Below, piece after piece: positions 28,588 to 57,697 of a stretch of 64,000 nucleotides of DNA. Position 1 is the first letter of the stretch; every line of letters begins with the position of its first letter. The stretch comes from Eledone cirrhosa (lineage: Eukaryota), in contig OZ024743.1 in assembly GCA_964016885.1 (NCBI GenBank), forward strand, positions 235,538,001-235,602,000. Reading direction: 5' to 3'. A program made the translations under genes and the position numbers. The notes beneath the pieces were generated by a model, which worked only from the letters and a program-made list of their open reading frames with translations, ran no database searches and was not told where the DNA came from.

Positions 28588-29282
28588 TTGGTTATTTGGA
28601 AGTCTGACAATGCGTGTTTGGTAAAAATAGGGAGGTAGTAAGAAAGTAGAGGGAGAAAAGAAGAGAGGGAAGAAAAGTGAGGACAATAGAGAGTTACCTA
28701 AGTAATTTTTAATGATCCAAAATATTTTCGGATTTTTCATCCATTATCAAGGAGAGTCGGGGGAGGGTGGACCTCAGAGAGATAACTGAGAAATGTCGCG
28801 GGCAGCTGTTTGATTTAATTTATTCCTTATTGGCTTTGAGTGGTTAGATAGCAGACAAAATATGTTTCTGACCAAACTACGCCCACACACTTTTGCTTCT
28901 TTATCCCTTTAAAATGTGTTCTTCACTACACATACACACTTACACCCGTGCACACATGCACACATGTATCATACACATACTCACACCCGTTCTCCTTACA
29001 CACATGCGCAAACAACATTCAATTTTAACATTTTTTATTCAAATTAAATTGAACAGCTGCCCACGATATTACTCAAGTTTTTCTCTGAGGGTGTCCCACC
29101 ACACCCCGCACGGACTTCCCTGGATGAGAAATCCGAAAATATTTGGGATCATTAAACATTGCTAAGGTAAATATCTACTGTCTTCGCCATTTCACTTCAG
29201 TTCACTCTCTTCTTTTTATTCCTCTTTTTTATTACCTTGACAGTTTTACCAAACACGCATTGTCGGGCTTCCAAATAACCAA
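28588..29282. repeat. Diverged long inverted repeat (arms ~28588-28821 and ~29041-29282) containing degenerate hammerhead motifs
   Basis: ttggttatttggaagtctgacaatgcgtgtttggtaaaa is mirrored by ttttaccaaacacgcattgtcgggcttccaaataaccaa; gggcagctgtttgatttaattt is mirrored by aaattaaattgaacagctgccc. Confidence 0.85.
28716..28754 (-). ncRNA. Degenerate minimal hammerhead ribozyme motif (U3-A8 core)
   Basis: Minus strand tcc-TTGATAA-t-ggat-gaaaa-atcc-GAAA-atat-tt-tgga; the mirror copy at 29117-29148 lacks the core heptamer. Confidence 0.5.
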
Positions 29283-29614
29283 ACTTGTGTATAATCCCCA
29301 CCCCGAGGTCTAAATCCGACCCTGAATAAAGCTATCTGTATATAAACATCTACACATATCTACTCAACCAGTTAATAATTCTCCTAGTCATTTGAACTAT
29401 TTTAGTTTAACTTCTACTCAAATGCAACATGGGATTTAGCATAAGACAACAGCCCCACAGACATTCATTCTAATTAGTATTTACATCTATTTAAATCAGT
29501 AATTCCCAGTCTATCTAGGCATTAAAATTGCAGCTCCAGTAATTGTAAATCGTTTTTTGTTTTCAATTATATCTAAAAACAACCTGAAATTGAGAAGAAA
29601 ATTCGAAGTCCGCC

Positions 29615-29907
29615 TATTTTGGAGTAACGTTACTCGATTAAGTGCATAGTTCAGTGATGAGAAAGTCATTCAAGGTAGAGCTGCTACTTCTCCGAATTGA
29701 GAGATCACAGCTCCGGTACTATGGACATGTGGTTAGAATGTCTCAAGAAAGAATCGCTGGGCAGATTTTATGGTCAAAACCAACCAGCAGGAGACCCAGG
29801 GGTAAACCCATGAGCTTGGCTGGTCTCACTTAGGGATCCAGACGTATCTGTTGGAGAAAGGTTCAATGGAAGGAGTGTCTGAGGACTCTGACCCCACGAC
29901 CCTCACA
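29615..29907 (+). mobile_element. RTE-clade LINE 3' fragment
   Basis: Encodes IERSQLRYYGHVVRM...RRPRGKP, the characteristic RTE ORF C-terminus; followed by (GAA)n. Confidence 0.75.
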
Positions 29908-29996
29908 AGAAGAAGAAGAAGAAGAAGAAGAAGAAGAAGAAGAAGAAGAAGAAGAAGAAGAAGAAGAAGAAGAAGAAGAAGAAGAAGAAGAAGAAG
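29908..29996. repeat. (GAA)n microsatellite
   Basis: Directly visible. Confidence 0.95.
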
Positions 29997-30384
29997 GTAC
30001 TAAGTTGATTTCCTCCTACAATTTTGTATTTTATAACCTATAAAAGTCTCATTAATTTATCATTCCTATTCTGTGCGCCTGTTCCTGATTAGCTGATCAT
30101 AACAGAAATGATGTAGTTCAGGGGTTGGTTTAAAATTTCTTCTTTAATCAAAACAGGATGGAGGTAAATTTAGTTTAGAAAAGTGATTATGGAGTAAACG
30201 GGACAAAAAACAAAATGGCTGCCAAGCGCTCATTTAAACCTGGCTACGTTACATGGCTTTTATTGTTTTGCAAGGGAGAGAATCGAATGATTTATTTCGT
30301 TCTCTTTACTTTTCTATCTTTTCTTCTTAGTAACCTAACACATTATGTATGTTCCTCGAAACTAAATATATTGAAAATATATGA

Positions 30385-30483
30385 TATATATATATATATA
30401 TATATATATGTGTGTGTGTGTGTGTGTGTGTGTGTGTGTGTGTGTGTGTGTGTGTGTGTGTGTGTGTGTGTGTGTGTGTGTGT
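30385..30483. repeat. (AT)n(GT)n microsatellite
   Basis: Directly visible. Confidence 0.95.
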
Positions 30484-30635
30484 TCACAAGCCGAATCAAA
30501 TTGGTACCGCTGTCGGGATATTACCTATCTCTATACCCACTCTACATTTCCACATGCATTAAGTACTCCCATGGTCTCTCCTGTCTCTCTCTACCTCTCT
30601 ATCTCTTTCTATCTTTATGTCATTACCACACCAGA

Positions 30636-30720
30636 GGTCCGACGAGCTTTTGATTCCGGAATCGGGCCAGATCGATACAGATCGAACCTTGAGCTGATCA
30701 ATAGCGAAACGCGCGTCACC
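30636..30720 (+). ncRNA. Hammerhead-like motif (Penelope-type remnant), core CCGACGA
   Basis: ggt-CCGACGA-gcttttgatt...gatcaatagc-GAAA-cgcgcg-TC-acc, then AATAAA at 30725. Confidence 0.6.
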
Positions 30721-31307
30721 AACCAATAAACGTAATGAAGACAATAAATCGTCCTTTTATAATTATATATATTTATATATATGTGTGTGTGTGTGTGTGT
30801 GTGTACATATTTGTGTGTGTGTGTAATTGTGTGTTTATGAGTGTGTGTGCACGTGTGTATGTCTGTATGCCTGTGTGTGTGTGTGGGCGTGCTTATGCAG
30901 ATTGTGCAAGTGGGATTAACTGGTTTTAGTTTAGTTAGGATTGTAGAGATAAGGAATATTCAAGGGAGAGAAGTCATATTGAATTATATTTCTCAGTCTT
31001 AATACAAGATGTCTCACGCTTCACTTAACACAAATCCAGCCTCGGCCATATTCTCTAAGATAATCCACTATAAGACCTCTCCATACATGTGTGTACCCCA
31101 CATGTACACTCAAACTGTGTGTGTTTATATGTGTGTGTGTATGTGAGTGTGTGTGTGCGTGTGTGTGAGTATGTGTGTGCGTGTGTACATCAATCTAAAA
31201 AACAATCTTAGTTATTAAATGTTTCATTATTGGCAGTGCCACAGCATGGCATCAGCCTCTCGGCTGGAACACATGATAGTGTAATAGAGTAATATTACTC
31301 CAGTTCG

Positions 31308-56413: not shown

Positions 56414-56504
56414 TCTCTTGATAAGCTGGCTTACCTCACAACAATGTTACATATCTATGATATAACATTTTTGCATAGTGACCAGCGAAACTGTACAGTC
56501 GGGA
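56414..56504 (+). ncRNA. Hammerhead ribozyme, U3-A8 variant core
   Basis: tctc(56414)-TTGATAA(56418-24)-gctgg...ccagc-GAAA(56487-90)-ctgtacag-TC(56499-500)-ggga; GUC triplet; palindromic helix III ACTGTACAGT. Confidence 0.7.
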
Positions 56505-56757
56505 CTAAAGAAAAAAATAGGTATATTGTATCTATTATTCCTTTTTATAATATTTTACATAACTCTGATGTGTCAATTTAATTATTTCGATTATTTTGTC
56601 TCTCATAATCATAGAGTAACACTGGTTAAGGTCGACAACATACAATCTCACATACTTGTGAAAAATATATGTTTATATATACATGTATATGTATGTATAC
56701 ACATATATTTGTATACCTCTCATTAATGTATAACCACAGACCCTCCATCTCAACTCA

Positions 56758-56795
56758 CCTTTTGAAAAGCAGAAGAACTGCGAAACCGGTAAAGG
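56758..56795 (+). ncRNA. Minimal hammerhead motif, U3-A8 variant core
   Basis: cctt-TTGAAAA-gcag-aagaa-ctgc-GAAA-ccgg-TA-aagg, followed by AATAAA. Confidence 0.6.
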
Positions 56796-57226
56796 AACCA
56801 AATAAATATATATATTTAAAAAAAAAATAAGACTTCAGTTGCATTTTCGATTTCATCTCTTTTTCTTTATACTTTCACTCGTGTAGGACACCTCGGTTAT
56901 TTTTCATTTTGTAAAAAAAACCTCACTTTCTAATATATATATATATATATATATATATAAATAGGATTTCGCTTCAAGCATAGCGTTATACAAATATGTA
57001 TAGAAATTTCGTACACATACACGCACACACATATATATATATACTGTATATATATATGCACACCATGTATATATATATATAACCAAAGATTAATATGATT
57101 CAATGATTACTCAATGAATATAGTTTTACAATAGATTAAAAGCACTCGACAGTAAAAGTTTTCTGGAGTTAGTAATATTATTCGAAATATTAATAAATGA
57201 ATACGTTCACATAATCAAAATATATG

Positions 57227-57288
57227 TTTTATTATATATATTTCGGAGGTACTGTGCTGTTTTTTCAGTACGCCCTCATCAGATAAAA
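57227..57288 (-). ncRNA. Minimal hammerhead ribozyme, canonical core CUGAUGA
   Basis: Minus strand ttttat-CTGATGA-gggcgtactg...cagtacctcc-GAAA-tatata-TA-ataaaa. Confidence 0.8.
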
Positions 57289-57412
57289 TATATGAATTGA
57301 TGTGTGACATACCTCAACTATCTTGATGGTTCAATTCCAGTATTGACAGTACTGCCAAGACTGGAATTGAACCATCAAGACCGTTGAGGTATGTCACACA
57401 TCAATTCATGTA

Positions 57413-57474
57413 TTTTATCTGACGAGGGCGTACTGAAAAAACAGCACAGTACCTCCGAAATATATATAATAAAA
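57413..57474 (+). ncRNA. Minimal hammerhead ribozyme, canonical core CUGACGA
   Basis: ttttat-CTGACGA(57419-25)-gg.gtactg...cagtac.cc-GAAA(57457-60)-tatata-TA-ataaaa; 6-bp helix I. Confidence 0.8.
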
Positions 57475-57520
57475 CATATATTTTGATTATGTGAACGTAT
57501 TCATTTATTAATATTTTGAA

Positions 57521-57697
57521 TAATATATATATATATACGTATATATATATATATATATATATATATATATATATATATATATATACATACACATACACCA
57601 TGTGATATAAGGTGTTATCAAGTTATATATATATATATATATATATATATATATATATATATATATATATATATATATATATATATATATATATATA
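57521..57697. repeat. (TA)n microsatellites
   Basis: Directly visible. Confidence 0.9.

Follow-up and report, generated by a model that had tools for sequence, protein, structure and literature searches.

In this work we have examined a set of inverted repeats with hammerhead-like motifs in a window of Eledone cirrhosa DNA, by which we mean the whole analysed stretch of 64,000 nucleotides. An earlier, sequence-only reading had described three long inverted repeats here, and all of them were found. The inverted arms 56075-56255 and 56335-56515 share 94% identity, those at 57175-57350 and 57351-57526 share 96%, and the repeat at 28588-29282 aligns in three blocks at 77-86%. The elements extend further than was thought: the right arm of the B repeat continues for ~165 bp (to 56725), the left arm of the C repeat for ~95 bp (to 57081) and the left arm of the A repeat to 28561, and the apparent spacer of the latter is the upstream body (3' UTR) of the family A element itself. 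The motifs of the window are members of five repeat families, A-E, of the 3-Gb genome (Table 1).

Table 1. Element ends of families A-E in the window
Feature	Position	Strand	Remarks
Family A short inverted arm, 3' end of old Penelope-like element	28561-28821	-	ends at short TA run
Family A long arm	28822-29286	+	hammerhead ~29116-29149, UUGAUAA box deleted; collinear with RT/GIY-YIG pieces in L194-L197 and L212
Family E solo 5'-truncated end	30612-30762	+	core CCGACGA (U4C) at 30639, palindrome ACGCGCGU, AATAAA downstream
Family B inverted arm without tail	56036-56339	-	core UUGAUAA at 56172, palindrome ACUGUACAGU, ends in (TA)n
Family B arm with tail (~56560-56725)	56335-56725	+	core UUGAUAA at 56418
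Family D solo 5'-truncated end, tail ~64 bp	56731-56933	+	core UUGAAAA at 56762, palindrome ACCGGU
Family C inverted arm with tail (~57081-57176)	57081-57350	-	canonical core CUGAUGA at 57282, palindrome AUAUAUAU
Family C arm without tail	57351-57520	+	canonical core CUGACGA at 57419, then (TA)n

When any base was allowed at positions 3 and 8, a type I hammerhead descriptor found six motifs in the window (30639+, 56172-, 56418+, 56762+, 57282- and 57419+). In 100 shuffles by block of the non-satellite bases (33,050) it found 0.02 on average and never more than one; a first, stricter version had returned three and was then relaxed. The descriptor so relaxed is still strict, and six of the eight motifs reported earlier pass it, with core boxes, a 3-8 Watson-Crick pair and three helices present. 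Across 1.25 Mb of fetched loci there were 265 matches, and none after shuffling. An Rfam scan of the window gave no hammerhead family at E≤1, the only matches being microRNA-like and other low-scoring ones on repeats. The UUGAnAA cores claimed for four motifs are all in the sequence (28750-, 56172-, 56418+ and 56762+), as are the five short helix III palindromes that had been named. Of the two solo motifs, placed at 30636 and 56758, both correspond to descriptor matches (30639+ and 56762+), and in the first a C at position 4 (CCGACGA) had been overlooked. One motif per arm, as proposed for every repeat, holds for 56031-56561 and 57175-57526 but not for 28588-29282, which has one recognisable core instead of two because the UUGAUAA box of its right arm has been lost by deletion. 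The left hammerhead of this repeat (~28715-28754) has the core UUGAUAA, one extra base before helix II and the palindrome AAUAUU; with a mismatch in helix I it fails the descriptor, and it is a decayed U3-A8 copy.

Do these ends belong to coding elements? The window has no RT/GIY-YIG ORF, as had been stated (best tblastn E 0.017 for seven Penelope ORF pieces), and the linked Penelope ORFs that it was suggested to look for in the genome were found for A and D, as RT/EN-like frames for C, probably for E, and not for B. For family A the ORF and UTR are collinear in five loci (L194, L195, L196, L197 and L212), the hammerhead being reached in L194, L196 and L197; relatives match RVT_1 (8.9e-11) and GIY-YIG (1.2e-4) in Pfam, and the A reading frames are broken. 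Family D carries an intact ORF of 775 aa, near-identical among copies, with Pfam matches to RVT_1 (E 1.3e-6) and GIY-YIG (3e-6) and 67 of 150 scored places identical over 160 aa. In 29 of 30 loci picked by this ORF the D hammerhead lies 1.0-1.4 kb downstream, and its core reads UUGAAAA in 27 of them by script and in one more by eye. The ORF has a CX2-5CxxC linker, GxKF and DKG, and compared with the Neptune definitions of Craig et al. 2021 (PMC8557442) these motifs assign D to a young Neptune-type element, an assignment which does not separate Neptune from Nematis. As in that clade, there is one ORF with the RT followed by GIY-YIG, GxKF, DKG and a C-x4-C-xx-C linker, copies occur in tandem and inverted, the tail is at one end and the targets are (TA)n; D differs in its tail of ~64 bp, not 30-40 bp, and in its U3-A8 core. 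Two D copies lying 5.1 kb apart on C1 were rejected as a full element, since they have no ORF and arose by local duplication within TA repeats.

The C ends of the window are probably, judging from linked motifs, the 3' end of a Hydra-like Penelope-like element. In two copies (L132 and L133) collinearity extends from the endonuclease region as far as the hammerhead. When the ORF pieces linked to C were compared with Pfam, neither a reverse transcriptase nor a GIY-YIG match resulted; the pieces were recognised by motifs and by 43-48% identity to a related family, F. The linked frame contains a CxCX5C linker, the N-terminal part of the C ORF was not recovered, and RWK and DKT were seen only in family F. 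The linker, insertion into (TA)n and the canonical core agree with the Hydra clade (Craig et al. 2021), as do RWK and DKT in F; Pfam and PDB searches with F-type ORFs gave no useful match. A 517-aa ORF beside a C copy in L137 was considered as the C partner and rejected, as it belongs to family F and is separated from C by (TA)n and D copies. Family E is probably the 3' end of an ORF-bearing Penelope-like element, and probably of Hydra type, from which it differs by U4C. Its link to an ORF is made by one upstream endonuclease fragment (in L280, E 5e-13) together with a series of homologous blocks. We did not take the ORFs of L135, L206 and L285 to be partners of E or D.

Family B is different. 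Its low-GC unit (35%) loops back head-to-tail after 586-587 bp, and neither an ORF partner nor any tblastn match to nine Penelope ORF pieces was found; its tandem copies were partial dimers only, in 30 top and 4 extended loci. B probably represents a non-autonomous derivative of 586 nt which the enzyme of one of these families mobilises. All the elements had been called non-coding, which fits B only and not A, C and D with their ORF-bearing relatives, nor probably E. B resembles the non-LTR retrozymes, as characterised in the parts of Cervera and de la Pena 2020 (PMC7229834) and of Li et al. (bioRxiv 10.64898/2026.07.22.740005) considered here, in being an ORF-less, low-GC, head-to-tail unit with one type I hammerhead. 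It differs from them in size (586 bp versus roughly 220-400 nt), in forming partial dimers only and in its Penelope-style inversions and tails at insertions.

The arrangement of the copies tells more about their origin. In a run of 100 consecutive D sites on C1, neighbours no more than 6 kb apart were head-to-head in 13 cases, in tandem in 2 and tail-to-tail in 2, where ~0.28 would be expected per class; duplicates were removed from the pair counts by sequence signature only. The head-to-head D spacers range from 67 to 2578 bp and reach 6.4 kb with the ORF included, the long arm containing the whole ORF in L318 and L320; in L317 D is in tandem with a period of ~3.9 kb. Of the pairs, 35 of 38 in D, 13 of 14 in C and 10 of 13 in B had a tail on one end and none on the other, the A, B, C and E loci being the best 25-30 of 314-3,916 candidates and not a random sample. 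The tails are longer than the 30-40 bp quoted for Penelope-like elements. Each family has two fixed 3' end points beside TA repeats, a short end and a tail end, while the 5' ends and the points of inversion differ between copies. The majority of copies stand alone or have two arms whose lengths are unrelated; 5' truncation and partial tandem and inverted copies occur. The flanks, read by eye without a shuffle control, are (TA)n or other AT-rich DNA, and where elements end within TA repeats a target-site duplication cannot be told apart. Long inverted repeats, short spacers and TA-rich flanks could be taken as the signs of MITE-like DNA transposons whose likeness to hammerheads is incidental. 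We give this reading practically no chance: fixed terminal inverted repeats and a uniform size, which MITE behaviour would entail, are contradicted by the variable ends, the asymmetric tails, the rarely shared junctions and the prevalence of solo or unequal-armed copies, while the collinearity with RT/GIY-YIG frames and the 265 descriptor matches in 1.25 Mb, compared with none after shuffling, also speak against it.

More questions are raised by the C palindrome. Its junction and arm-specific variants are common to two C574 copies with different flanks, one of which is 97.3% identical to it in the same orientation and 94.3% when flipped, and many C folds turn near one point of the sense arm, which is partly a query effect. 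One fold-back has been recopied, giving three copies. Could the fold-backs be non-coding retroelements of a separate class, multiplied as whole palindromes, as the proposal of a fold-back system of their own implied? We regard this as very improbable, since the window C junction has only 3 exact matches genome-wide compared with 2,306 first-look candidates of the family, only three of 14 C pairs were seen to share a junction, the D spacers vary over the range given above and partner ORFs are known for A, D and, as RT/EN-like frames, C; the ends, moreover, are asymmetric. What the pairs show is the inverted 5' truncation already known from Penelope-like elements, and they constitute neither a MITE nor a fold-back family. 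This agrees with the part of the sequence-only reading that saw Penelope-type pseudo-LTR hammerheads with inverted arms. In other copies, frames for RT and GIY-YIG lie collinearly upstream of the A and D ends, and RT/EN-like frames upstream of the C ends. We are dealing, very probably, with 5'-truncated 3' ends (pseudo-LTRs) of several families of Penelope-like elements, mostly inserted in (TA)n, each with a predicted hammerhead, the head-to-head palindromes likely being a by-product of insertion. The common origin of the two arms of a pair is weakly shown, because the two arms of a pair differ by little less (3.7-5.6 mismatches) than arms of different pairs do (5.4-7.5), the partner being strictly the nearest arm in 8 of 46 cases.

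U3-A8 is, as had been suggested, the compensatory form of C3-G8. Of the 265 descriptor matches 262 keep a Watson-Crick 3-8 pair with both positions free, and G8 was found in 10 of 10 C3 family groups and A8 in 4 of 4 U3 groups. Among single families, U3-A8 was found in 38 of 38 B cores, UUGAAAA in 90 of 93 D cores and C3-G8 in 31 of 31 C cores; of 25 A copies 13 had an intact U3-A8, four had the mismatch CUGAUAA and none had C3-G8, and the U4C core (CCGACGA) of E is family-wide. Covariation of positions 3 and 8 within families was looked for in A, B, C and D and none was found; U3-A8 covaries between families and behaves as a fixed lineage trait. The palindromic helix III was said to favour dimers, and the folding energies bear this out (-0.2 to -13.4 kcal/mol between molecules compared with +1.5 to +6.0 as hairpins), with the A palindrome barely pairing between molecules (-0.2 kcal/mol). 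It may be asked if the variant hammerheads (U4C in E, U3-A8 in A, B and D) have ceased to cleave and persist as protein-binding or structural RNA. Minimal hammerheads have low activity even as dimers (PMC4209133), U4C lowers activity in vitro (PMC3088659), and the ribozyme of PAc, the Poseidon element of Anolis, depended on the protein and was not required for insertion in vitro, according to the sections of Frangieh et al. 2024 (PMC11167929) drawn on here. However, the retention of the 3-8 pair in nearly all matches and in every family group argues against a loss of function, and U3-A8 ribozymes, which also occur naturally, have been shown to be active in vitro (PMC3088659). We therefore think it unlikely that these ribozymes are inactive.

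How could two outward-facing ends arise from one insertion? We hypothesize that an element protein nicks AT-rich DNA on both strands and that reverse transcription would start from each nick, at one of two internal sites of the RNA. The two incomplete cDNAs would then join at their truncated ends, leaving two outward-facing copies, one with a tail and one without. U3-A8 keeps the 3-8 Watson-Crick pair, and each hammerhead is predicted to cleave the RNA that contains it only when dimeric or aided by protein; the two ribozymes of a pair, lying on opposite strands, cannot form a dimer in cis. The same sections on PAc describe two internal RT start sites, which explain an optional tail, and AT-rich targets cut and extended on both strands, to which we liken the elements here; they also report a double-mutant test of C3-G8 pairing. 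PAc is of a different clade and has a canonical core, and head-to-head pairs are not modelled in those sections. Perhaps there is even a strict rule of one tail per pair, set by a dimeric enzyme which primes both target strands from different RNA start sites. We propose this only tentatively, with somewhat more doubt than belief. The genome would then hold direct test material for the rule and for the variant cores in D (young, intact, U3-A8), B (a putative 586-nt ORF-less, circle-forming parasite, U3-A8) and E (high-copy, U4C).

Much of this has precedents. Cervera and de la Pena 2014 (PMC4209133) described the U3-A8 families Sm3 and Sm4 in Penelope-like elements of Schistosoma mansoni, stated that such cores are missed by CUGAnGA searches and then retrieved ~1,300 such matches in that species. 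The idea that the atypical core escapes these searches thus holds but was already published, as were the pairing of motifs on opposite strands and the palindromic helix III of Penelope ends. The hammerheads of that study share with ours the type I fold, a palindromic helix III, G10.1-C11.1 and the pLTR position, and the elements likewise have dual opposite-strand motifs 100-700 bp apart and are mostly single truncated copies. Within the supplementary figures compared, Fig. S3 includes cores starting UUGAUAA and UUGAAAA, both seen here, and Fig. S4A places an opposite-strand second motif at the truncated 5' end, as we found. Our hammerheads depart from theirs in having longer palindromes (6-10 nt), a long loop 2 of 52-54 nt in B and E and, in A only, an additional base following position 9; U4C of family E is absent among the Fig. 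S3 rows compared. Since the variant core and the opposite-strand pairing were described in 2014, the finding is largely ordinary, and the one-tail count and the family-wide U4C in E are small additions to it. Family D offers practical material: its ORFs are intact, nearly identical and linked to a U3-A8 ribozyme, and its recent insertions number in the thousands (a 25-base D pattern has 5,679 exact matches in the genome). It is well suited to the question of how inverted ends of Penelope-like elements form and what their ribozyme does.

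The hammerhead motifs of the window are real and are an instance of a phenomenon that has already been described; their carriers add new members to known Penelope-like clades. All three inverted repeats and both solo motifs lie where the sequence-only reading had placed them, and a descriptor for type I hammerheads, in which a palindromic helix III was required and positions 3 and 8 were unconstrained, matched six motifs in the 64 kb; when the 33,050 bases outside the satellite were block-shuffled 100 times, the mean was 0.02. One hammerhead per arm had been claimed; this holds for the B and C repeats but not for the right arm of the repeat at 28588-29282, which has lost its UUGAUAA box. 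The left arm of the same repeat carries a seventh motif, UUGAUAA plus one extra base, with a helix I mismatch. The core of the motif at 30639 is CCGACGA. No Rfam model matched the window at E<=1.

Features of the window, and loci of family F elsewhere in the genome
Feature	Location	Strand	Remarks
Family A	28561-29286		both arms
Family E	30612-30762	+	solo motif
Family B	56036-56725
Family D	56731-56933	+	solo motif
Family C	57081-57520
32-bp satellite	31307-54150		~713 copies at 92% match, between both motif clusters
Stacked LINE copies	10473-24350	-	presumably L1/Tx1-like; Pfam Exo_endo_phos E 1.8e-15 (AP-type endonuclease), RVT_1 E 1.4e-26
Non-LTR-like pieces	8763-10071, 24972-25982	+	C-terminal restriction-like endonuclease (by eye); no useful Pfam match
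Mariner-type remnant	62296-63201		108-bp inverted repeats flank frame with Mos1 HTH match
Family F	L322 2713-5067; also L137, L198, L321	- (L322)	distinct element, Hydra-like and very young; ORFs of 785 aa

The window lies on contig C4 (G000:C4:235538001-235602000), and every motif in it belongs to a family dispersed through the 3.0 Gb genome. First-look searches, with 40 candidates scored and 25-30 loci fetched for each family, returned 314 candidates for A, 1,289 for B, 2,306 for C, 76 for D and 3,916 for E. D is much larger than its search indicated: a 25-base D pattern is matched exactly at 5,679 genomic sites, and its reversed control at 0. On the 3' side, copies of all five families stop against (TA)n or TA-rich DNA at one or other of two constant positions (short end or tail end); the 5' ends are variable. 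Between 56.0 and 57.5 kb, B, D and C are represented by independent insertions piled up in TA repeats.

The elements had been read as non-coding, with no RT/GIY-YIG ORF for them in the window. Indeed no Penelope ORF was found within it, and "non-coding" appears right for B, for which an ORF was sought and none found, but wrong for A and D, and probably for C, which are collinear with RT/EN-like frames elsewhere. Two D loci (L274 and L277) are continuous from such frames to the hammerhead, with roughly 1 kb of UTR in between, and the motif lies 1,012-1,363 bases downstream of the ORF in 29 of 30 loci picked by ORF; the core is UUGAAAA in 27 by script and in one more by eye, and is deleted in one. 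With a 160-aa piece of the ORF as query, 67 of the 150 places scored (of 23,452 candidates) were identical, and about 20, counted by eye, lie within 775-aa open frames. Because the ORF matches Pfam RVT_1 and GIY-YIG and has GxKF, DKG and C-x4-C-xx-C motifs, D is Neptune-like by definitions in the available parts of PMC8557442. As an intact, young U3-A8 element it is suited to biochemistry. For A, two upstream-walking searches arrived at RT and GIY-YIG frames that are broken; these are collinear with the UTR at five loci (L194, L195, L196, L197 and L212), and at three of them (L194, L196 and L197) the collinearity extends as far as the motif. Several A relatives with an ORF have an inverted A motif upstream. 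In two C loci, L132 and L133, an endonuclease region bearing a CxCx5C linker is collinear with the motif, and the frames of these loci, which a Pfam search did not recognise, appear Hydra-like. For E the linkage to a coding element is weaker than for D, A and C: in L280 a single fragment of an endonuclease (E 5e-13) lies upstream. In B, the sequence past the 3' end re-enters the body after 586-587 bp (L201, L202).

How common is the inverted arrangement? In an unbiased positional sample of D, the first 100 pattern sites on contig C1 with neighbours counted within 6 kb, there were 13 head-to-head, 2 tandem and 2 tail-to-tail neighbours, with about 0.28 expected per class and spacers of 67-2578 bp. 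Inversion is therefore common, involving about a quarter of D sites, although most sites have no such neighbour. At each of two head-to-head loci, L318 and L320, one arm contains an entire ORF; the arrangement at L317 is tandem. Head-to-head pairs were deduplicated by sequence signature, so that some may be counted twice. Those with a tail at exactly one end number 35 of 38 for D, 13 of 14 for C (one C pairing being incomplete) and 10 of 13 for B. In the remaining C pair the tail is interrupted, and all three exceptions in B are tandem junctions of the internal kind. Could both arms simply come from the same template? Within-pair arms are only slightly closer than between-pair arms, and so small a closeness counts against such an origin. 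C junctions vary between loci except for that of the window, which has 3 exact matches genome-wide and recurs with different flanks in two copies on contig C574 (G000:C574:111771, 132938). A fold-back can thus be recopied as a unit, but rarely.

In 1.25 Mb of partly overlapping fetched loci, the descriptor gave 265 matches (175 U3-A8, 87 C3-G8 and 3 mismatched) and none after shuffling. The 3-8 covariation that had been anticipated is present between families, with G8 in 10/10 C3 groups and A8 in 4/4 U3 groups as grouped by eye (Fisher p 0.001, relatedness ignored), but not within them: there the 3-8 pair is either constant or decays with no compensating change. C4 occurs in 32 of 39 E cores shown (40 counted) and in a second small family. 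About nine further hammerhead groups lie in flanks (L083, L084, L134, L286, L320; L311; L098; L129; L029; L232), of which one is the second with U4C and another, whose palindrome is 12 nt long, the fourth with U3-A8. By folding energies, the palindromes of helix III favour intermolecular pairing over the hairpin, strongly in B, E and D and barely in A. Since the two hammerheads of each pair occupy opposite strands and its read-through RNA is predicted to form an extended duplex (68-85% of it paired), the inverted arrangement would give no ribozyme dimer in cis.

The available parts of PMC4209133 describe minimal hammerheads in Penelope pseudo-LTRs, opposite-strand dual motifs 100-700 bp apart, cores starting UUGAUAA and UUGAAAA, an extra base after position 9 and a palindromic helix III, as well as a U3-A8 core, with ~1,300 matches, that escapes the standard descriptor; that CUGAnGA-type searches miss this variant, as the sequence-only reading had it, is correct and already in print there. 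Natural U3-A8, and U4C in a viroid, are mentioned in the accessible portion of PMC3088659, and that of PMC8557442 reports 5'-truncated inverted copies, a tail frequently at a single end and (TA)n targets. Retrozymes, in the excerpts available of PMC7229834 and bioRxiv 10.64898/2026.07.22.740005, are tandem units that derive from Penelope elements and have no coding capacity; PMC6765202, PMC6962438 and PMC7151607, likewise available in part, are further comparison literature. The points that remain are the almost invariable restriction of the tail to one end of a pair, the family with U4C, the ORF-less B unit and the intact D element. We found nothing specific in the literature on U4C in a Penelope hammerhead context or on two-sided priming for Penelope inversions, which does not establish their absence from print.

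For an Anolis element, the available text of PMC11167929 reports cutting and extension of both target strands, traces the optional tail to two internal start sites, and finds that the ribozyme depends on the protein and that insertion in vitro can proceed without the ribozyme. To the observed family structure, ORF linkage, fixed 3' ends, variable 5' ends and TA targets we add a mechanism in which both-strand priming with incomplete copying would produce outward-facing pairs with a single tail. B may have moved in trans, and the ribozymes are predicted to cut tandem transcripts as dimers. In family F, most of 150 scored places (60,855 candidates) are identical over 164 aa; its 3' hammerhead-like motif fits the descriptor imperfectly, and it too occurs in head-to-head pairs.
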